DNA of 30,947 bases, from IMG/VR virus record IMGVR_UViG_2534682078_000030. The stretch is one strand, 5' to 3'. The notes beneath the pieces were generated by a model. That model was not told the origin of the DNA, ran no database searches, and saw only the letters and a list, made by a program, of their open reading frames with translations. Positions 1,001 to 30,112 of the stretch are shown one piece after another. Source of the stretch: a virus (Duplodnaviria; Heunggongvirae; Uroviricota; Caudoviricetes). Position 1 is the first letter of the stretch; every line of letters starts with the position of its first letter. The position numbers were made by a program, and so were the translations under genes.

Positions 1001-2412
1001 TTCAGGAGGACCGCCACGAGCTGGGCGATGACATAACTCCGCGTTTTAAGGCGGAGTATGTCGACGGCTCAAAAGGCACACCAACCAGCTACATCGCCAC
1101 CTACATCGGAAAGAACCTGGACAGCCGCGCCGTGGATGGCATCGACCCGAAAACGGGCAAGCCACGCGTTGACCACGAAACCGGAAAATCAATGGCCGAG
1201 AGCGTGGAGCGCGCCATCGGCTGGGCGCGCCTTCACCGGGTCCGTCAGTTCCAGTTCTTTGGCATCCCCTCCCGTCAGGTGTGGCGTGAACTGCGCCGCC
1301 TTGCCAGCCAGATGGCACGCAATCCGGAAGGCCCGCAACGGCTGAAAGATGATGCAATGGATGCGGTACTCGCTGCCGCCGATGCCGGGTGTTTTGCCAC
1401 CTACATTGAAAAACAGGGCGGCGTACTTGTTCCACGCAAAGACTACCTGATTCGCACCGCCTACGACCTCGCAGATGAGCTGAATGATTACGGCGAACAG
1501 AGCGTACAGATTTACGGGATCTGGTCACCACTCATCGGGGAATCCTCCCGTGTGTGCACGCATCCGGATAACTGGAAACTGGTAAGACGTAAACCGGAAA
1601 CGGAAGACAGCGCCCGCGAAAATGGTTTTGACCTTCAGGGCGGCCCTGCCGCCCCTTGGACTCGTGGCAATAACTGTCCCCGTGTACAGGAAACGGACAA
1701 CAACGGGGCAGAACAGCCGGAAGAACGGCCAGCACCGTGGCCGCAGCTCCCTGACGGCGTTGAAGTGAACGAATGGATGCGCTCACTGAAACGGCACGAA
1801 CGCCGGGCGCTGATGCGTTCGCTTCGTGACAAACAGGCAAAAAACAGCAGTGATGAAATGCAGAGCTGGACACAGAGCCGCAAACAGCAGCGGCCTTTGC
1901 CTGATAACCACGAATTACTCGCTAAAGAATGGCGGGAGTCTGCCGAATCTCTCGGCCTGCATATCGGTGAACAGCAGATGCAGCACCTGCTACGGGGCGG
2001 CAGCCTGTACGTTGACGGCAGCATCATTGCACCGCAGGGATATGAAATTGTACGCAAACCGGATACCCGCCCGGACAGCCGAATCACGCAGCTCTGGCAG
2101 CACCTGAGCCGTAATCACGGCGTAAGCAGCACGGAGATCCGCCATAACCCGGTCGCCAGCTATCTGGCACAGCTGGGGGCATCAGACCCCGAAGCCGCCG
2201 CACGCCTGGCATCCGCACTTCAGCAGGATCAGAACACCATGAAAACACCCGTTACCGTGCTTTCTGACATGCTGCGCGCCATCCGCGACGCAGAGCACGC
2301 ACAGAGAATCAGTGAAACCACTGAACGCGCCAGCCGCAAAGCAGACCTGCTGCAGGGTGGCCTGACCAGTGGAAACAAAAACAGACAGAAACGGGACTCA
2401 CGAATCCCGTAA
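1001..2412 (+). pseudogene. A: Replication initiator gpA-like (rolling-circle Rep with paired catalytic tyrosines), 5'-truncated by IS copy A
   Basis: Open frame starts at the IS boundary with no start codon (QEDRHELGDD...). It contains the Y-x3-Y motif SYIATYIGKN typical of the P2 A / phiX174 A nickase family and sits upstream of the Q-P / O-N-M-L head cluster as in P2-like phages. About 470 codons remain. Confidence 0.7.
2391..2410. repeat. 20-bp palindrome ACGGGACTCACGAATCCCGT, copy 1 of 2, overlapping the gene A stop
   Basis: Inverted arms ACGGGAYT / AATCCCGT read directly in the sequence; repeated 73 bp downstream. Confidence 0.6.
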
Positions 2413-2517: not shown

Positions 2518-3477
2518 ATGAAAATTTGTATCGACGACGGCTCCACCAACATCAAGCTGGCATGGACTGAGAACGGCGAACGCCGCAACGCCATCAGCCC
2601 GAACAGCTTCAAGTCGGAATGGTCTGCGCCGTTCGGTGGCACGCAGCCCGCGAACTACATGCTTGATGGCGTGCGCTATGGTTTTGATCCGGTCAGCGAT
2701 CGCTTTGTCCAGACGACCGACACGCAATACCAATACAGTGATGTGAATGTCATTGCCATTCATCACGCGCTGGTCAAATCAGGCATCACGCCACAGGAGG
2801 TGGATGTGGTTGTCACCCTGCCACTGAGCGAGTATTTCGACACAAACGCACAGCCGGACATAGCCAACATCAACCGCAAAAAAGCGAACGTTATGCGCCC
2901 GGTGGAGTACCAGAACGGCGAAGCATTCACTATCCGTAACGTGCGGGTTATGCCTGAATCCATTCCGGCTGGCTTTAAGGCACTGGCTGACATGAGTCCG
3001 TTTGAATCCCTGCTGATTGTGGATTTGGGCGGAACCACGCTGGATGTGGCAAAGGTTCAGGGGCAGCTGGCAGGTATCAGCCAGGTGTTTTGCGATCCAC
3101 ACGTAGGCGTTTCCCTGATGGCTGATGCCGTGCTGTCGGTGATGGCCACTAACGGTATGCGTACCAGTCACCACATCGCCAATACCATTATTGAGCACCG
3201 TCACGATGAAGCCTGGCTGCGCCAGCACATTCACAATGACGCGCATTACAACAGCCTGATGGCGGTTATTCGTGAAAAGGAGGAGACACTGAAACAACGA
3301 GTGATCCGCGCGCTGGCGGGTTTTTCCGGTTACGGGCGGGTGATGGTTGTCGGTGGAGGGGCGGAGATTGTGGCACCCGCTATCCGCGAAGCCTGCGGAG
3401 TTAATGCGACTTTCATCACGGACGGGGTGCCACATTTTGCTCTGGTTAATGGGCTGTACGCAATGAACAAGGAGTAA
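2518..3477 (+). CDS. parM: ParM/StbA-like actin-type plasmid segregation ATPase
   Basis: 319 aa; N-terminus ICIDDGSTNIKLAW...ISPNSFKSEW, then YSDVNVIAIHHAL, VMPESIPAG, LIVDLGGTTLD and VVGGGAEI align closely with my recollection of plasmid R1 ParM. SD AAGGAAAA precedes the ATG at 2518. Confidence 0.85.
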   Translation: MKICIDDGSTNIKLAWTENGERRNAISPNSFKSEWSAPFGGTQPANYMLDGVRYGFDPVSDRFVQTTDTQYQYSDVNVIAIHHALVKSGITPQEVDVVVTLPLSEYFDTNAQPDIANINRKKANVMRPVEYQNGEAFTIRNVRVMPESIPAGFKALADMSPFESLLIVDLGGTTLDVAKVQGQLAGISQVFCDPHVGVSLMADAVLSVMATNGMRTSHHIANTIIEHRHDEAWLRQHIHNDAHYNSLMAVIREKEETLKQRVIRALAGFSGYGRVMVVGGGAEIVAPAIREACGVNATFITDGVPHFALVNGLYAMNKE

Positions 3478-3481
3478 ACCA

Positions 3482-3793
3482 ATGACGACACCAACCAGAA
3501 GAATAAGTTTCTATCTGAAGCCAGCTGCCGTCAAGAACGAAGGAGAAGCATGCGCCTGGCTGGACAGCCTTACACCAGAAGCCCGCAAAAGCGGCCAACG
3601 CGTGGCTTTTCTGGCCGGGCTGGCACTTCTGAAGACGAATCCGGCAGAGGCTTACCGACTGGCCGCATGGGCTGATGATGAGATGTTACCTGTGACACAA
3701 ATCAGCTCAAAAAAGTTTGAAGCACAGTCTGCACCAGTGGCTAAGATAACCAGCCAGATGGCTGGGAATATCCGGGCGTTATTTCCTGAGTAA
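3482..3793 (+). CDS. parR: ParR/StbB-like centromere-binding adaptor
   Basis: 103 aa immediately after parM; RRISFYLKP...LDSLTPEARKSGQRVAFLAGLAL resembles the R1 ParR N-terminal ribbon-helix-helix region (RRTIAFKLNP...LDSIPQGERSRLNRAALTAGLAL). Confidence 0.7.
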   Translation: MTTPTRRISFYLKPAAVKNEGEACAWLDSLTPEARKSGQRVAFLAGLALLKTNPAEAYRLAAWADDEMLPVTQISSKKFEAQSAPVAKITSQMAGNIRALFPE

Positions 3794-18871: not shown

Positions 18872-19447
18872 TGACATTCAGAATGAGTGAACAATCACGG
18901 ACCATAAAAATTTATAATCTACTGACCGGAACCAATGAGTTTATTGGTGAAGGTGATGCATACATTCCACCTCATACAGGTCTGCCTGCAAACAGTACCG
19001 ATATTGCCCCGCCAGATATTCCGGCTGGCTTCGTGGCCGTTTTCAACAGTGATGAGGCATCGTGGAATCTCGTTGAAGACCATCGGGGAAAAACCGTCTA
19101 TGACGTGGCTTCCGGCGACGCGTTATTTATTTCTGAACTCGGTCCATTACCGGAAAATGTTACCTGGTTGTCGCCGTATGGAGAGTATCAGAAGTGGAAC
19201 GGCACATCCTGGGTGAAAGATGCAGAAGCAGAAAAACTGTTTCGGATAAGGGAGGCGGAAGAACAAAAACAGCCTGATGCAGGTAGCCAGCGAGCATATT
19301 GCGCCACTTCAGGATGCCGTAGATTTGGATATTGCAACGGAGGAAGAGGCATCGTTACTGGCTGCATGGAAGACATACCGGGTATTGTTGAATCGTGTTA
19401 ATACAGCGGTAGCAGCGGATGTTGAGTGGCCAGTCGCCCCACAATAA
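18871..19447 (+). pseudogene. G: Tail fibre assembly chaperone (gpG/Tfa family), frameshifted at an A5 run (19265-19269)
   Basis: Frame 1 ends at 19401 with an atypical Cys-rich tail. The -1 frame from the A run encodes the conserved Tfa C-terminus [58 protein letters not shown], ending at about 19447. Confidence 0.6.
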
Positions 19448-19490: not shown

Positions 19491-20063
19491 CTATTTATAC
19501 AATACAACACCGCTCTTTTTAGTTATATATGTGCAGTTCGATGGTATATCTTTATTTATAAAAGACATTGCACCTATTTTTACATTATCCCCAATTTTAC
19601 GTGATAATCCAATGATGCAACAATTAGCTCCGATATCAACGTTACTACCAATTTTTACTCTTGAACCAGGCATGTCACCATCTATCTGTCCAATGGTAGT
19701 ATTCTGTCGTAACACCAGATTTTCACCAGCATCAACAGCAAAATGAACAACAATTCCAGCATGATGGGGAATTGTTAACCCTTTTCCAATATTTGCGCCC
19801 AATCCAATTTCACAACCAAATTTGTTAATTATTTTACTGTTTAACTTTTTGGCTGCTTTCTTATGTAATTTATTACCATTAATATACATTTCGTTAGCCA
19901 ACCGCCACCAGAAAAGGAAATTCCGGTTACGCTGTTTTTTCTCTCTTAAAAGCCTCCAGATATCCATACGTTTCCGCCGAATTACTTCATATTTCCAGAA
20001 GTTTTTTAAATTAGTAGAGTCCCCAAATAAAACAAAGTGAATTGCCATTAAGTAAGACAGCAC
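19491..20063 (-). CDS. Hexapeptide-repeat (left-handed beta-helix) acetyltransferase, cargo gene at the Z/fun position
   Basis: Repeated [LIV]-G-x-x-x-x hexads (IGLGANIGKGLTI, VKIGSNVDIGANCCIIG, KIGDNVKIGAMSF); AT-rich. Likely GTG start at 20063 with SD AAGGAG (the tracked ORF starts at 20096). Confidence 0.7.
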   Translation of the reverse strand: MLSYLMAIHFVLFGDSTNLKNFWKYEVIRRKRMDIWRLLREKKQRNRNFLFWWRLANEMYINGNKLHKKAAKKLNSKIINKFGCEIGLGANIGKGLTIPHHAGIVVHFAVDAGENLVLRQNTTIGQIDGDMPGSRVKIGSNVDIGANCCIIGLSRKIGDNVKIGAMSFINKDIPSNCTYITKKSGVVLYK

Positions 20064-20114
20064 GATAATCTCCTTAATTATTATTTCAGACCACACATAT
20101 TATAAGGTTAAGAG

Positions 20115-20720: not shown

Positions 20721-23537
20721 TCAATCTTTATCGTAAAAACTGCCACGTCCGGCACGGGCGCGCCGTTCCATCTCTGCCCTGACCATTTCACCGACCAGTT
20801 TCGCCAGTTCGCGGGGATTCTGCGTAACAACGTTATGCAGATGAACATGAATTTCACCGCCAAATCCGGAGGCAACAGGCTCCCGGTTACGGGAAGTTAC
20901 AGGAACTGATGCCACTGGAGATCGTATGGCCTCCGCCACCGGGCGGGAGCTGGCCGCAACAACAGGGACCAGCGCCGGAGGCAGCGGAGCCGGGACCACG
21001 GGTGTGATATTAATTGCGGGGGCAGGCTTACTGACCTGCGCAATCTTCCGCTCCTGCCACTCCCCACGAACAGCAAGTGCGCGGGGCAGGTTCTTAAAGA
21101 CAATATCGCCAGGGCCAATGCGTTTTTTCGTCTCATCAACCAGCTTACCTGTGTTATCAGCAATTTTGCTGAGTCTGCGTAGCGTCCCGGTATTGCTGTC
21201 TGTGAGCGGTTTGTTGTCTTTGGGTTTATCACCTCCGGTGCCATTGCCATTTTCCACAGGCTTCGGCGGATTGATTTTCGCCAGGTCCCCCTGAAGTAAG
21301 GCAACCTTATCCTGAAGAATGGCCGCACGCTGTGCGTCTTCGATTTTCTTGCGCGCCCTTTCCGCTTCATCCGGAAGGACGCCAAGTTTTTCAAGTATCC
21401 ACGCCAGCGTATCCAGTAGCATTTTTGCAGGTGTCAGAACAAGTTGTAACGCACCGCCAAGAACGTTACCGAATATCTCGCCAGCACTGGTACATTTATC
21501 CAGCGTTTCCTTGCTGGACTCCATCGGTGACAGCAGCGATTTAAACCAGTTAAACACCTGGCTGATCCCGCTTCCGATTGCGTCAAAAACAGGGCCAAAC
21601 CGTTCAAAGGTTTCACGCAACGGGTTCAGCCTTTCCATAATCCCGCTGAACACCCCGGCAAAAAATGCCCTGATGGGATCCCAGTATTTCCAGATAAGGA
21701 CGGCAGCTCCGGCAAGCGCAGCCACGATAAGACCAACCGGACTGAACAGCGCCCCGATAGCGCCTCCCAGTAAAGAAACGGAACCCGTCACCATTCCCCA
21801 TAGTGCTGGCAGGACCCTGACAGCATTCATTGATCCGGTCAGGAGAGAAAAACCAAGACGCAGTTTTGCCAGCGGACCAGCAAGCACACCAATAGCCAGC
21901 GACAACGAGCCAACCGTTGCAGTCATTGCCAGCAACGCACCGCCTGCTATCAGTAGCTGGCGCGTCAGTGCCGGATGGGCCTGCGCCAGCGCCGTCACCC
22001 TTGATACCACCCGCGTGAGCCACTGCGTGACAGAACGCAGCGGACCGTCAATCAGATCTGCAATGCGGATGCGCAACCCTTCCCATGCACTGCCGAGTGA
22101 TTTCAGATCGCCGTCAAGGTTGTTGGCCATAACCTTTGCTGTGCGTTCAGCCTCACCGCGCGCGCCTTCAAGTTCTTTTCTCAGTTTGGGTAAGGAACCG
22201 TCACCCGCTGCATCAACGAGCGCCATAAACGATGTGAAAGCCTCTTCTCCGGCAATGTCCTTAAAGAACGATACCCGGTCAACTTCCCCGTATTTGCGGG
22301 TGGCTTTATAAAGGTCGGCCAGCACATCCTCCATCGGGCGCATTTTGCCGTTCGCGTCAGAGACTGCCACACCAAGCTCTTTCAGCGCCTCTGCTGCCGC
22401 CTTTGGCGGTGATGCCAGACGAGCCAGGCTGGCACGCATTGCCGTCCCGGCATCACTTCCCCTGATACCCATATTCGCCAGCACGCCCGCCATCGCTGCG
22501 GCCTGCTCCAGCGATATTCCCAGCTTGCCCGCCACCGGACCTGCATATTTCATGGTTTCGCCCAGTGCGCGAAGGTCAGTGTTGGTACGGGTAAACGCTG
22601 CGGTGAGCGTGTCACCGACCCGGTCCATCTGGTCGGCAGAAAGGCCGAACTGCGTCAGGATGTTTGAGCCAATATCCGCCGTCTCGCCGAGATCCATACC
22701 GCCAGCCGTTGCCATGCTCAGCACACCGGGAAGCGCAGCCTGAATGGCCTGTGGTGTGAAGCCAGCCATTGCAAGAAATGCCTGGCCACTGGCGGCATCG
22801 CCTGCGGTGAACTGCGTTTCAGAGCCAAGTTTTAACGCCTGCTCACGCAGCGCCTTAAACTGTGGGCTGTTCTGGTCGATTCGCGTCAGCGCCTGAACGC
22901 GGGACATCTCTTTCCCGAACCCGATCGCAGGCTGCAAAAAACGCCCGGCAGCATAGCCGCCCGCCGCTGCCGCACCAATTGCCAGCGCACCACCTGTTTT
23001 CAGTTTTCCCGCGGTTTCCTGCGCGCGCGAATACCGCTCACGCGCCCGCGTTACACGCGCAAGCGCCTGCCGTTCGCGTTCAAGCTGGTTGTTGTACTGT
23101 TCGGTGCGTCTGATGGCCTGCTGGATGGTGTTATCGCTGCCTGTCAGGGAAATGCCGTGGCGTTTCAGTTCTCCGCCAAGTTCCCGCATTTTCTGAATTT
23201 CCCGTGTGCGCGATTCATTCAGGCGTTCAAGCCGGGTGCTTAACTGCTGCATCAGCTTTTGTTGTTTTTCGCTGAGCACTGTACCCGTGCGTTGTAACTG
23301 ATTAAGGGCGTTAAGCTGGCGTCGTGCTTTCACGATACCCGCATCCGCTTTACTGACAGCGTCGCGGGCGCGCTCAAATGAACGCGCCTGACGCTCGAGA
23401 TTTTTGATCGCCCCCTGCGTTCGCTGGATGGAGTCACCAAACTGCCCCATCAGGCGGCGGGCGTTTTCGGCAGGCCGGGTCAGCCTGTCAACGGCGCTGA
23501 AAGCGACCCGGATATCAAGAGTCTTCATTATCTGCAT
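20721..23537 (-). CDS. T: Tail tape measure protein (P2 gpT family)
   Basis: 938 aa, coiled-coil N-terminal half and Ala/Gly-rich hydrophobic central region; follows E/E'. Confidence 0.9.
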   Translation of the reverse strand: MQIMKTLDIRVAFSAVDRLTRPAENARRLMGQFGDSIQRTQGAIKNLERQARSFERARDAVSKADAGIVKARRQLNALNQLQRTGTVLSEKQQKLMQQLSTRLERLNESRTREIQKMRELGGELKRHGISLTGSDNTIQQAIRRTEQYNNQLERERQALARVTRARERYSRAQETAGKLKTGGALAIGAAAAGGYAAGRFLQPAIGFGKEMSRVQALTRIDQNSPQFKALREQALKLGSETQFTAGDAASGQAFLAMAGFTPQAIQAALPGVLSMATAGGMDLGETADIGSNILTQFGLSADQMDRVGDTLTAAFTRTNTDLRALGETMKYAGPVAGKLGISLEQAAAMAGVLANMGIRGSDAGTAMRASLARLASPPKAAAEALKELGVAVSDANGKMRPMEDVLADLYKATRKYGEVDRVSFFKDIAGEEAFTSFMALVDAAGDGSLPKLRKELEGARGEAERTAKVMANNLDGDLKSLGSAWEGLRIRIADLIDGPLRSVTQWLTRVVSRVTALAQAHPALTRQLLIAGGALLAMTATVGSLSLAIGVLAGPLAKLRLGFSLLTGSMNAVRVLPALWGMVTGSVSLLGGAIGALFSPVGLIVAALAGAAVLIWKYWDPIRAFFAGVFSGIMERLNPLRETFERFGPVFDAIGSGISQVFNWFKSLLSPMESSKETLDKCTSAGEIFGNVLGGALQLVLTPAKMLLDTLAWILEKLGVLPDEAERARKKIEDAQRAAILQDKVALLQGDLAKINPPKPVENGNGTGGDKPKDNKPLTDSNTGTLRRLSKIADNTGKLVDETKKRIGPGDIVFKNLPRALAVRGEWQERKIAQVSKPAPAINITPVVPAPLPPALVPVVAASSRPVAEAIRSPVASVPVTSRNREPVASGFGGEIHVHLHNVVTQNPRELAKLVGEMVRAEMERRARAGRGSFYDKD

Positions 23538-24053
23538 TCCCGCTGCGAAGTGCCGCCCGCTCGCGCCAGCTAACCACTTCGCCGGGCGTCATCATGAAGA
23601 TTTCGGCGGGCGACCAGTTAAAAATGGCGGCAATATCCGCCACCAGATCTTCGATGTGCTCAAAGCACACCAGGGTGATTACGCTGCCGTCTCCTGCACG
23701 CTCTTCGCGCCAGAGTCTGGCTCGCTCATAAAATTTACAGCCACTGCGCACAACTGAATAAAATCGCGTGACGACATTTTTTTAATCATCACTTCATCCA
23801 GTCGTGGCGAGGTCACGCGAGGCAACAGCGTAAACATGGTATCCGCTTTCAGATTCAGCACATCAGACAGCGACAGACCACGCAGGGATCCAGCCTGCTC
23901 AATAGCCCCGGTGATCTCCACATACGTGATTTTTTCGCCACCACGCTCAATTGGTCGGGTCAGTTTTACGCCACGTTCGACAGCCATATCCTCACCTGCC
24001 GTCACATCACCCGCCACGGTGTTATTCCGGGTTTCAGTATCGATGTCTTTCAT
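23515..24053 (-). CDS. E': Tail assembly chaperone E+E' made by programmed -1 frameshift
   Basis: The -1 frame is open from the A7 run to 23515 and encodes ...FMMTPGEVVSWRERAALRSG, resembling the conserved E' C-terminus; overlaps the start of T as in P2. Confidence 0.6.
23679..24053 (-). CDS. E: Tail assembly chaperone (P2 gpE family)
   Basis: 124-aa ORF upstream of T; contains the A7 slippery run (plus-strand T7 at 23777-23783). Confidence 0.7.
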   Translation of the reverse strand: MKDIDTETRNNTVAGDVTAGEDMAVERGVKLTRPIERGGEKITYVEITGAIEQAGSLRGLSLSDVLNLKADTMFTLLPRVTSPRLDEVMIKKMSSRDFIQLCAVAVNFMSEPDSGAKSVQETAA

Positions 24054-24839: not shown

Positions 24840-24893
24840 TGAACCGCCCCGGAAATCCTGGAGACTAAACTCCCTGAGAAAGAGGTAAACAGG

Positions 24894-25220
24894 ATGACTA
24901 AAAATACTCGTTTTTCCCCCGAAGTCCGTCAGCGGGCGATTCGTATGGTTCTGGAAAGTCAGGATGAATATGACTCACAGTGGGCGGCAATTTGTTCCAT
25001 TGCCCCAAAGATTGGCTGTACGCCGGAGACTCTGCGTGTCTGGGTTCGCCAGCATGAGCGGGATACCGGGGGCGGTGATGGTGGGCTCACCAGCGCTGAA
25101 CGTCAGCGTCTGAAAGAGCTGGAACGTGAAAATCGTGAACTGCGCCGCAGTAACGATATCCTTCGCCAGTCTTCCGCTTATTTTGCGAAGGCGGAGTTCG
25201 ACCGCCTCTGGAAAAAATGA
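24894..25220 (+). CDS. IS3-family transposase OrfA (helix-turn-helix, leucine zipper)
   Basis: 108 aa, [41 protein letters not shown]..., which I recognise as IS629/IS1203 OrfA. Confidence 0.9.
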
Positions 25221-26107
25221 TGCCACTGCTGGATAAGCTGCGTGAGCAGTACGGGGTCGGACCGGTATGCAGCGAACTGCATATTGCCCCGTCAACGTAT
25301 TACCATTGTCAGCAACAGCGACATCATCCGGATAAACGCAGTGCCCGTGCGCAGCACGACGACTGGCTGAAGAGAGAGATACAGCGCGTATACGATGAAA
25401 ATCATCAGGTGTACGGTGTGCGTAAAGTCTGGCGTCAGTTGTTACGGGAAGGAATCAGGGTGGCCAGATGTACAGTGGCACGTCTCATGGCGGTTATGGG
25501 ACTTGCCGGTGTTCTCCGGGGTAAAAAGGTCCGTACGACCATCAGCCGGAAAGCCGTTGCCGCAGGCGACCGCGTAAACCGTCAGTTCGTGGCAGAACGA
25601 CCTGACCAGCTGTGGGTGGCTGATTTTACTTACGTCAGCACATGGCAGGGCTTCGTCTATGTGGCGTTTATCATTGATGTGTTTGCCGGATACATCGTGG
25701 GGTGGCGGGTCTCATCGTCTATGGAAACGACATTCGTGCTGGATGCGCTGGAGCAGGCGTTGTGGGCCCGTCGTCCGTCTGGCACCATCCATCACAGCGA
25801 TAAAGGCTCTCAGTATGTGTCACTGGCCTATACGGAGCGACTAAAAGAAGCCGGATTACTGGCATCAACAGGGAGTACAGGCGACTCGTATGACAACGCG
25901 ATGGCTGAGAGCATCAATGGTCTTTACAAAGCGGAGGTAATACACCGTAAGAGCTGGAAAAACCGTGCAGAAGTGGAACTGGCCACACTAACGTGGGTGG
26001 ACTGGTATAACAATCGACGATTGCTGGGAAGGCTGGGCCATACTCCTCCGGCAGAAGCAGAAAAAGCTTATTATGCTTCCATCGGAAACGATGATCTGGC
26101 AGCCTGA
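25217..26107 (+). CDS. IS3-family transposase OrfB (DDE catalytic domain)
   Basis: 296 aa in the -1 frame relative to orfA, normally expressed as an OrfAB fusion by frameshifting at the A run. Confidence 0.9.
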
Positions 26108-26149
26108 GTTCACAGATAAAACACTCTCCAGGAAACCCGGGGCGGTTCA

Positions 26150-27275: not shown

Positions 27276-28384
27276 ATGACCGACACCACCATGCAATTGC
27301 TCAGTCAGGGCACAGACCCCGTGAAAATGCCGGATTTTGATATTCTCGCGGAGGGTAAAACGCTGTCAGGCGTGGCAGAGCGCCTGATGAGCCTGTCACT
27401 GACCGACAACCGGGGATTTGAGGCGGACCAGCTCACCATCACGCTGGATGATGCGGATGGTCAGTTGCAGCTACCGCCACGGGGCGCGCGCCTGACGGTT
27501 CTCATTGGCTGGAAAGGAGAACCGCTGACAGAAAAAGGCACTTACATTGTTGATGAAATCGCTCACGAAGGACCGCCGGACAGGCTGACTGTTTCAGCCA
27601 GAAGCGCAGATTTTCGGGATGAATTTAACGTTAAACGTGAGGTGTCCTGGCATGATGTGACCGTTGAGCGTGTGGTATCCGCCATCGCTCATCGGTATGG
27701 TCTGAAACCGCAAATCAGCGAAATGCTGATGGATATCGAAATCGACCACGCCGACCAGACCGAAGAAAGCGACATGTCCTTCCTTACGCGCATGGCGGAA
27801 ATGCTGGGCGCAATCACCACGGTAAAAAGAGGTAATCTGTTATTCATCATGCCCGGCGGTGGCGTGAACGCACAGGGCCAGCCGTTGCCCTCGTTCGCCA
27901 TCACACGCAGCAGCGGCGATCGCCATCAGTTCCGCATTGCTGACCGCGAAGCGTATACGGGGGTACGCGCTTACTGGCTTGATCTTAATTACGGGAAAAA
28001 GAAAAAGTCAGCGTGAAACGCCGCAAACCGTCAAAACCAAAAAAGGAGAAAAGCAGCAGCCGGGAAGGCGACTATATGGAAGGTGCGGAAGGCAACGTGT
28101 TTGTGTTACGCAAAACTTATCAGAACGAGCAGGCAGCAAGACGTGCAGCGGCGGCAAAGTGGCAGCAGCTACAACGCGGAGCCGCATCATTCTCCATCAC
28201 ACTGGCGCATGGACGTGCAGAACTCTACCCCGAAATGCATGGCACGGTAACAGGATTTAAAAGCGAGATTGATAATCAGGACTGGATTATTGCAAAAGCC
28301 GAGCACACCATTGATAACAGCGGCTTTACCACGCAGCTTGAGCTTGAGGCAAAAATCCCGGAATGGATAGCAGAAACAGAGTGA
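27276..28384 (+). pseudogene. D: Tail protein D (P2 gpD family), split by a -1 frameshift in GGGAAAAAGAAAAAG (27993-28007)
   Basis: N part (to 28016) has SLSLTDNRGFEADQLTITLDDADGQL and SARSADFR; C part (from 28013) has REGDYMEGAEGNVF and GFTTQLELE; both are collinear with P2 gpD. ATG at 27276 is preceded by GGGAGGGA. Could equally be a homopolymer sequencing error. Confidence 0.6.
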
Positions 28385-28609: not shown

Positions 28610-30112
28610 ATGAACAAAAAGCTGTATTTATTCCCAGACTCAAACATTTTTCTACAATGCAAGGACTTGACGCAGGTAAATTTTTCCGAGATTACTGCTT
28701 GTGATGAAGTATGTATCATTATTACAAGGCCCATTCAGCAAGAGATTGACCGCCAGAAAGGGCAAGGTAATTCCCGCCTATCCAAAAAAGCAAGGAAGGC
28801 TGCTAGCCTATTTAATCAAGTAGTTGATTCAACTGACATGACTCTTGTTATTCGTGAACGCTCGCCGCGAGTTTTTCTTACCATGGATCTAAGCCTGAAA
28901 CCATGTGAACAGTTATCTGAACAATTGGATTATCAGGAGGCCGACGATCGTTTTGTTGGTATTGCGGCAGGGTATTGCGCTGACGATCCAGATTCGGAGG
29001 TGGCAATCATTACCAATGATAGCGGTCCACGTTTTTCAGCAATAAAACATAATATAATCTGCTATAAAGTGCCTTCTTCATGGTTGCTTCCTGCTGAGCC
29101 AGATGAAAAGGATAAACAAATTAAATTGCTGGAAGCTAAGCTGAAGCAATTCACTCAGTCTATGCCCGATTTCAGCATTAAAGTAGCCGATGACGAGCAA
29201 TTAAATATTGTACTTCCTTATTATACAGCTTTATCTGAATATGAAGTTGATAATTTGCTTTGTCAACTAACGGATGCATTCCCATTGGTTACAAACTTTG
29301 ACAATGAACAAACTACCCCACAATCACTAGAAAAAATCATCAAGTCATTTAGTCAACAGGAGTATTTCCCTGTATCAGCAGATGATATTTCTCTTTATAA
29401 AGAAAAACATTATCCACTTTGGAAAAAGCAGTGTGAAGAAATACTGAAAAACTGTCATACTCATATTAATCCGAAGGCAATAAAATACCCGCTGTCGTTT
29501 TTATTACAAAACACAGGTTATACTATCGCTGAACGTGCTGTGGTAACATTTACAGCAAAAGGAGATTTTCGTCTGTGTGGATTTAATTGGGAGATAATGG
29601 AAGAGCTGACTGAAAGCAAAAGGATTGACCTACCTTCAGCCCCTACCGCCCCCAAAGGAAAATGGCGTAGTGTATGTGGCGTAACAGAAAGAATGCCTTA
29701 CGCTGGGGGAGCTTTGGAAACACCGCTATCCAGTATAATTTCAAAAGAAATTGGTCCTTTGTTATCTCTTACTCCAACAGAAAGGGATAAAAACGATTTT
29801 TATTATAAAGAAAAGAGAAATGAGCCAGTTCAAGTTGTATCGCTGGAATGCGAAGAGTGGCGTCATCAAGTCAAAGAAGAAATATTCCCGTTGTTCGTAT
29901 ATACAGCCAACAAACCAAAGAAAGTGAATGGTGCAATTGAGGTGAGAGTTGATGCAAATAACCTTACCAATCCGGTCATTAAAACATTTAAATTAAAAAT
30001 AACTATAGAAGAACATAGTGCATTTTCAACCATAACAGAAATGGTGCAGACATACATTCAAGAGCAGAAGAAAAGACAGAAAAGTTCTATTAGCGCACAA
30101 ATCAAAACATGA
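28610..30112 (+). CDS. 500-aa protein with N-terminal PIN-like nuclease domain and uncharacterised C-terminal region; candidate phage-defence effector
   Basis: Long ORF with SD GAGG 9 nt upstream; AT-rich codon usage unlike the flanking phage genes. N-terminus LYLFPDSNIFLQ...IIITRPIQQEIDRQ...KKARKAASLF...VAIITNDSGP has PIN-like spacing of acidic residues. No Walker A or HEPN motif seen. Confidence 0.6.
   Translation: MNKKLYLFPDSNIFLQCKDLTQVNFSEITACDEVCIIITRPIQQEIDRQKGQGNSRLSKKARKAASLFNQVVDSTDMTLVIRERSPRVFLTMDLSLKPCEQLSEQLDYQEADDRFVGIAAGYCADDPDSEVAIITNDSGPRFSAIKHNIICYKVPSSWLLPAEPDEKDKQIKLLEAKLKQFTQSMPDFSIKVADDEQLNIVLPYYTALSEYEVDNLLCQLTDAFPLVTNFDNEQTTPQSLEKIIKSFSQQEYFPVSADDISLYKEKHYPLWKKQCEEILKNCHTHINPKAIKYPLSFLLQNTGYTIAERAVVTFTAKGDFRLCGFNWEIMEELTESKRIDLPSAPTAPKGKWRSVCGVTERMPYAGGALETPLSSIISKEIGPLLSLTPTERDKNDFYYKEKRNEPVQVVSLECEEWRHQVKEEIFPLFVYTANKPKKVNGAIEVRVDANNLTNPVIKTFKLKITIEEHSAFSTITEMVQTYIQEQKKRQKSSISAQIKT

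Follow-up and report, generated by a model that had tools for sequence, protein, structure and literature searches.

The gpD protein of phage P2, the tail and baseplate hub (PF05954), is encoded by one ORF, as the first-pass annotation of the DNA analyzed here had stated, and the D genes of P2 and of phages P88 and P88_4B11 (Xuanwuvirus) are all uninterrupted. Over the D region, the stretch of 30,947 nucleotides under study (hereafter, the window, i.e. the whole stretch at its full length) is 97.5% identical to P88 at the DNA level, and the Xuanwuvirus records show 95.4-97.6% identity to it. P88 and the window share their gene order: D is divergent from the sheath-to-U block, and ogr and hok come next. 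In the window, D sits in a P2-type tail cluster (sheath, tube, E, tape measure, and U on the minus strand adjoining D), with a PIN cargo gene as well as ogr and hok downstream of it. In contrast to D of P2 and P88, D of the window is broken by the loss of one base.

The two parts of D (Table 1) are read in different frames. The start codon was placed at ATG 27276 by setting the gene against the 1,110-nt D coding sequence of strain FCI1. At positions 27990-28019, the zero-frame codons are TAC GGG AAA AAG AAA AAG TCA GCG TGA, where TGA (28014-28016, plus strand) is the premature stop of D and overlaps the GTG at 28013 as GTGA. The −1 frame is open from 27989 to 28384, and its ORF-finder translation from that GTG begins with VKRRKPSKPKKEK. 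D is interrupted at 28007-28016, i.e. the window holds no single D ORF of about 360-390 aa. In the comparison with the Pfam profile Phage_GPD, the N-terminal part matches profile positions 48-207 (29.3 bits) and the C-terminal part matches positions 208-304 (28.7 bits); the two matches abut exactly at the break, and either half alone falls slightly below the cut-off of 30.1 bits. Joining the parts at 28007 restores a protein of 369 aa that aligns over its full length with P2 gpD (50% identity, E = 2e-121). Given the abutting profile matches and this end-to-end alignment, the two halves of D are collinear far beyond chance. Thus, the initial description, whereby D ends with GKKKKSA-stop and resumes in the −1 frame, with both halves collinear with P2 gpD, was borne out by the two ORFs, the profile matches and the full-length alignment.

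Table 1 Coordinates of the two parts of gene D and of other features in the window.
Feature	Position	Strand	Description	Basis
Second IS3-family transposase	65-946	−	adjoins gene A	
Replication endonuclease (gene A)	1132-2412	+	N-terminally truncated	
A6 to A5 loss vs. E2863	2371-2376	+	in the replication gene A remnant	E2863 annotation
ParM-like and partition-protein genes	2518-3793	+	within the prophage	E2863 annotation
IS009 (RF02111)	19214-19410	+	overlaps the 3' end of the tail fibre assembly gene, includes both A-run losses	Rfam, 182 bits
Two single-A losses (AAA to AA, A6 to A5)	19258-19270	+	tail fibre assembly gene of 176 aa vs. 192 aa in E2863	
Acetyltransferase-like moron	19491-20096	−	between the tail fibre assembly gene and U	
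Tail chaperone pair	23524-24053	−	124-aa ORF (24053-23679), then 51-aa GpE-family ORF in its −1 frame	
IS3-family element	24840-26149	+	1,310 bp, in the tail sheath gene; 3-bp junction overlap	breakpoints vs. E2863
IS orfA	24894-25220			
ALIL pseudoknot (RF01497)	25175-25291	+	spans the orfA/orfB overlap of the IS	Rfam, 121.5 bits
IS orfB	25217-26107			
Gene D, N-terminal part	27276-28016	+	zero frame, 246 aa, ends YGKKKKSA, then TGA	ORF list
A5-G-A5-G tract	27996-28007	+	second run (28002-28006) one A short compared to A5-G-A6-G	alignments with relatives
Gene D, C-terminal part	28007-28384	+	−1 frame; ORF-finder start GTG 28013	
PIN_4-domain protein	28610-30112	+	500 aa, cargo between D and ogr	

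To the relatives, the difference is a single base. A 1,321-nt query around D produced matches in 1,392 complete E. coli genomes, and in the best of these, E. coli E2863, the sole difference over the 1,321 bases was the missing A. The tract of the relatives reads GGGAAAAAGAAAAAAG (A5-G-A6-G), compared to A5-G-A5-G in the window; with the A put back, the sequence becomes YGKKKKVSVKRRKP, the 369-aa protein is identical to that of E2863, and the restored sequence is in line with the consensus of the family, which spans Escherichia to Serratia and Klebsiella. The D homologues were uninterrupted in the best 120 of 2,456, most of them 360-390 aa long, and so were those of the 99%-identity D cluster (6,052 members). 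Of 196 related loci with a full-length D, 189 had no frameshift, and no site in D other than the A5-G-A6 tract was frameshifted recurrently (5 of the 196). Many relatives carry the paired annotation 'VgrG/Pvc8 family protein' and 'hypothetical protein', suggestive of a widespread split of D; this was rejected, given that the coding sequence crosses the site uninterrupted and the annotation comes from a start call that shortens the gene, together with a spurious fragment on the antisense strand.

Judging from these sequences, the split of D is due to one A lost from an A6 run, that is, to an ordinary inactivating mutation or a base-calling error and not to programmed recoding, and it fits the category of homopolymer-length errors and frameshifted pseudogenes. 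The first-pass annotation had named an extra A restoring a single ORF on resequencing as what would speak against the split, and such an A is present in every close relative examined at the site, apart from the rare A5 alleles; this extra A, the 'frameshifted' annotations and the absent stimulator, both described below, agree with its ranking of mutation or homopolymer error above recoding. The tandem GAAAAAG motifs that it reported at the break are indeed found in the window, but their tandem appearance results from the deletion itself, the ancestral tract being GAAAAAGAAAAAAG; furthermore, with 10 copies vs. 4.8 ± 2.3 expected, GAAAAAG is no rarity in the window.

The A5 form is infrequent and unevenly distributed. 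When a 90-nt query over the site was compared with complete E. coli genomes, 730 were matched, none of them exactly, and the best matches all had one extra base. A 46-nt query able to seed only on the A5 form retrieved two complete genomes of about 730, KSC9 and EC04, in both of which D is labeled 'frameshifted' by PGAP. In KSC9, the sheath, methylase and flk genes nearby are also frameshifted; in EC04, the genes neighbouring the frameshifted D are clean. An exact pattern accepting either run length was run on IMG/VR and on metagenome contigs: the 120 IMG/VR contigs comprised 115 with A6 and 5 with A5, and A5 was found in none of the 102 metagenome contigs (101 with A6 and one with a substitution), so that A6 was present in 216 of the 222 pattern-matched contigs combined. 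The A5 contigs in IMG/VR were confined to three early isolate-genome batches (5/16 there vs. 0/104 elsewhere; hypergeometric p ~2e-5). The nine A5 alleles collected are 14-49 substitutions apart, which places A5 on at least nine haplotypes and indicates that it arose, or was called, independently many times. Considered in terms of phase variation, in which recurrent, reversible changes in the length of one tract turn a gene on and off, the change does recur on these haplotypes; however, its occurrence goes with the batch and type of assembly, and the tract itself is short.

The element as a whole is classified as a defective P2/P88-like prophage. Copies similar to the IS in its sheath gene are annotated as IS1203-family transposase in relatives; the same sheath/IS junction was not found in complete genomes. 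The same arrangement of the second IS and gene A is seen in E2863, which indicates that the replication function was lost before the strains diverged. The annotated integrase coding sequence in the near-identical E2863 copy is 753 nt long compared to 1,014 nt for P2 int, and is probably truncated. The ParM-like and partition-protein genes suggest a plasmid-type segregation module in this P88-like element. The moron between the tail fibre assembly gene and U is a serine O-acetyltransferase according to the E2863 annotation and has a faint Hexapep match in one relative. The cargo slot occupied by the PIN gene is variable in relatives, with a YecA-family gene in FCI1 and no gene in strain 2/0. 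Neither the PIN cargo gene nor the acetyltransferase-like moron had a match in a PADLOC scan.

As to how the A was lost, the window is 100% identical to AFDS01000059.1, from the draft genome of the porcine ETEC strain 2534-86 (PMC4358887). The single most likely cause of the split, to which we give about an even chance, is a homopolymer miscall in the draft assembly of E. coli 2534-86 (AFDS01000059). The length of the A6 run would have been under-called, and D in the cell would then be an ordinary 369-aa single ORF. The absence of one A from the A6 run of A5-G-A6, in the lysine-rich linker of gpD, shifts the frame by −1 and brings up the TGA three codons on. Compared to E2863 over 29.6 kb, the window has 1 substitution and 4 single-A deletions (2376, 19263, 19264 and 28001); each of the deletions shortens an A run, and two lie only 2 nt from each other. 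An excess of indels over substitutions is the reverse of the expectation from E. coli mutation-accumulation data and spontaneous spectra, and the A-run losses were therefore counted in favor of an artefact; the three A-run losses other than that in D, set against a single substitution, argue against a deletion in the DNA itself. Other A5 carriers show comparable changes: L073 differs from its nearest neighbour by 5 single-base homopolymer deletions and 6 substitutions, deletions in G/C runs are numerous in L010, and D of L046 contains a second, non-compensating A-run indel. In the latter case, compensation of the −1 at the tract by the +1 located 48 nt later was considered and rejected, given that a TGA lies between the two indels and the ORF stays broken. 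The window has three further A losses, in 2371-2376 and 19258-19270; two of these sites have the common context GAAACAAAAAACAG, and an Rfam IS009 match covers the second of these regions (Table 1). The runs affected in the window (3/25 A runs, 0/19 T runs and 0/6 runs of at least 7 bases) are too few to separate error from mutation. Several observations weigh against an artefact: all six A/T runs of 7-8 bases are unaffected, the 7 kb chromosomal flank in the same assembly is error-free, and the same truncated protein is found in a second GenBank assembly, AIGF01000023, with the allele present also in two later read sets.

The latter observations are shared with the competing account, a substantial possibility if a somewhat doubtful one, in which the deletion is real: slipped-strand mispairing would have taken one A from A6, turning D into a frameshifted pseudogene that drifts in an already non-functional prophage, with the allele inherited in a small sublineage. 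The A5 allele is common to four nearly identical prophage copies from different samples, and the exact truncated product was recovered from four assembled read sets, two of which match the GenBank assemblies exactly. In AIGF01000023, the sheath gene is free of the IS, and there is no other indel compared to E2863 over about 20 kb. The read sets SRR21721513 and SRR18191518 have a private SNP (28445 T) that is absent from 59/59 complete genomes with this prophage type; its presence in both of these later A5 read sets looks like inheritance within a clade. Two independent read-set contigs with 28445 T, L010 and L013, both end at window coordinate 28774, inside the PIN gene, a possible sign that this sublineage has an insertion or rearrangement at that point. 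With the IS in the sheath gene, gene A cut by an IS and the integrase probably truncated, the prophage was already defective, so that no selection for an intact D would be expected, and in EC04 PGAP calls the same allele a frameshifted pseudogene among clean neighbours. However, the frequency of A5 tracks assembly batch and type rather than phylogeny, none of 101 metagenome contigs and none of the 59 complete genomes with this prophage type carries it, and the exact truncated product is found in only 7 contigs of a 153-billion-gene index. This distribution fits a loss that may be technical, as the miscall reading holds, rather than one in the DNA.

Readings in which the split itself is functional fare far worse. 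Programmed or otherwise functional −1 frameshifting, whereby a slip at G_AAA_AAG (28001-28007) would give full-length gpD, appears very unlikely. A −1 slip on the AAG at 28005-28007 would yield exactly the wild-type YGKKKKVSVKRR, but any deletion in a run of this kind has the same property, which is no sign of design. Likewise, the slippery look of the run at the break lends recoding no independent support, given that A runs are also sites of deletions and base-calling errors. The first-pass annotation invoked A_AAA_AAG, a classic slippery sequence; this does not hold, since the tract is phased in the zero frame as AAA AAG AAA AAG, i.e. G_AAA_AAG twice, which is not a canonical X_XXY_YYZ heptamer, only the A_AAG tetramer being canonical. 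The two-frame layout is not conserved, D being a single ORF from P88 to Serratia and Klebsiella. The predicted structure of the 83 nt downstream (28008-28090) was no better than that of shuffled sequences (minimum free energy −15.5 kcal/mol vs. a shuffle mean of −17.0, z = +0.54), an Rfam scan produced no match at the D break, and no Shine-Dalgarno-like (GGAGG-like) element was seen upstream of the slip site on reading the sequence. Transcriptional slippage sites are long homopolymers, typically of 8-9 or more A/T; the runs here (A5 + A5 in the window, A5 + A6 in the relatives) are too short. In E. coli, no tetramer is shiftier than A_AAG read by lysyl-tRNA (PMC4066793); when a stimulator is lacking, tetramers shift at ~0.15% vs. 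a background of 0.11%, and A_AA.G reaches 5.6% only with the IS3 pseudoknot (Sharma et al. 2014, PMC4066793). Trace rescue of gpD by a −1 slip is conceivable.

It is also extremely improbable that D of the window is made as two polypeptides, the first ending at TGA 28014 and the second restarting at GTG 28013, with the halves assembling into the hub. The stop and start do overlap as GTGA, and the break falls where the family alignment is most variable and rich in gaps; the cut would lie in a flexible Lys-rich linker. Such an organization is seen in no relative, however, and no ribosome-binding site precedes the GTG as read from the sequence; besides, the A5 allele is rare and scattered over haplotypes, and the prophage would be unable to build tails anyway. 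Slightly less far-fetched, but still quite unlikely, is the idea that P88-like prophages have a true mutational hot spot in the A5-G-A6 tract of the gpD linker, by which D is turned off time and again, with low-level −1 slippage on G_AAA_AAG restoring the exact wild-type protein, i.e. a leaky, reversible 'savior-indel' state. If true, this would provide a minor further case in which a frameshift in a structural gene of a phage is leakily suppressed.

The window does hold a true frameshift contrast to D. In the IS within the sheath gene, orfA and orfB overlap at TGGAAAAAATGATG, and given the ALIL pseudoknot spanning it, this overlap is identified as the genuine programmed −1 frameshift element of the window. 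The tail chaperone pair is, in turn, probably the E/E+E'-type frameshift of this phage group; the 51-aa ORF belongs to the GpE family (PF06528) in relatives, and its −1 frame opens just past an A7 run at ~23777-23783.

Biologically, the split matters little: a tail gene frameshifted at a homopolymer is nothing unusual in a prophage already riddled with IS elements, be the loss in the DNA or only in the assembly. It does call for caution: an A run at a frame break is expected from a deletion or a base-calling error, and recoding should not be called without a conserved split and a stimulator. With the −1 sites of E. coli (dnaX and IS3/IS911/IS150), which combine A_AAA_AAG with a stem-loop or pseudoknot and, in some cases, an upstream SD, D of the window shares the AAG lysine codon after A's and the −1 direction; unlike these, it has G_AAA_AAG, no stimulatory structure, no conserved two frames and no alternative product. 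The tail assembly chaperones (E/E+E' of P2 and G/GT of lambda) also involve a −1 change within a phage tail gene cluster, but those frameshifts are conserved, give two required products and are located upstream of the tape measure gene (P2 annotation), whereas the split of D affects another gene and is not conserved. In contrast, compared to the frameshifted pseudogenes and homopolymer errors flagged by PGAP, the D gene of the window shows no difference: the identical A5 allele occurs in KSC9 and EC04, and, as in homopolymer errors, several assemblies with this allele have also lost single bases from other runs.
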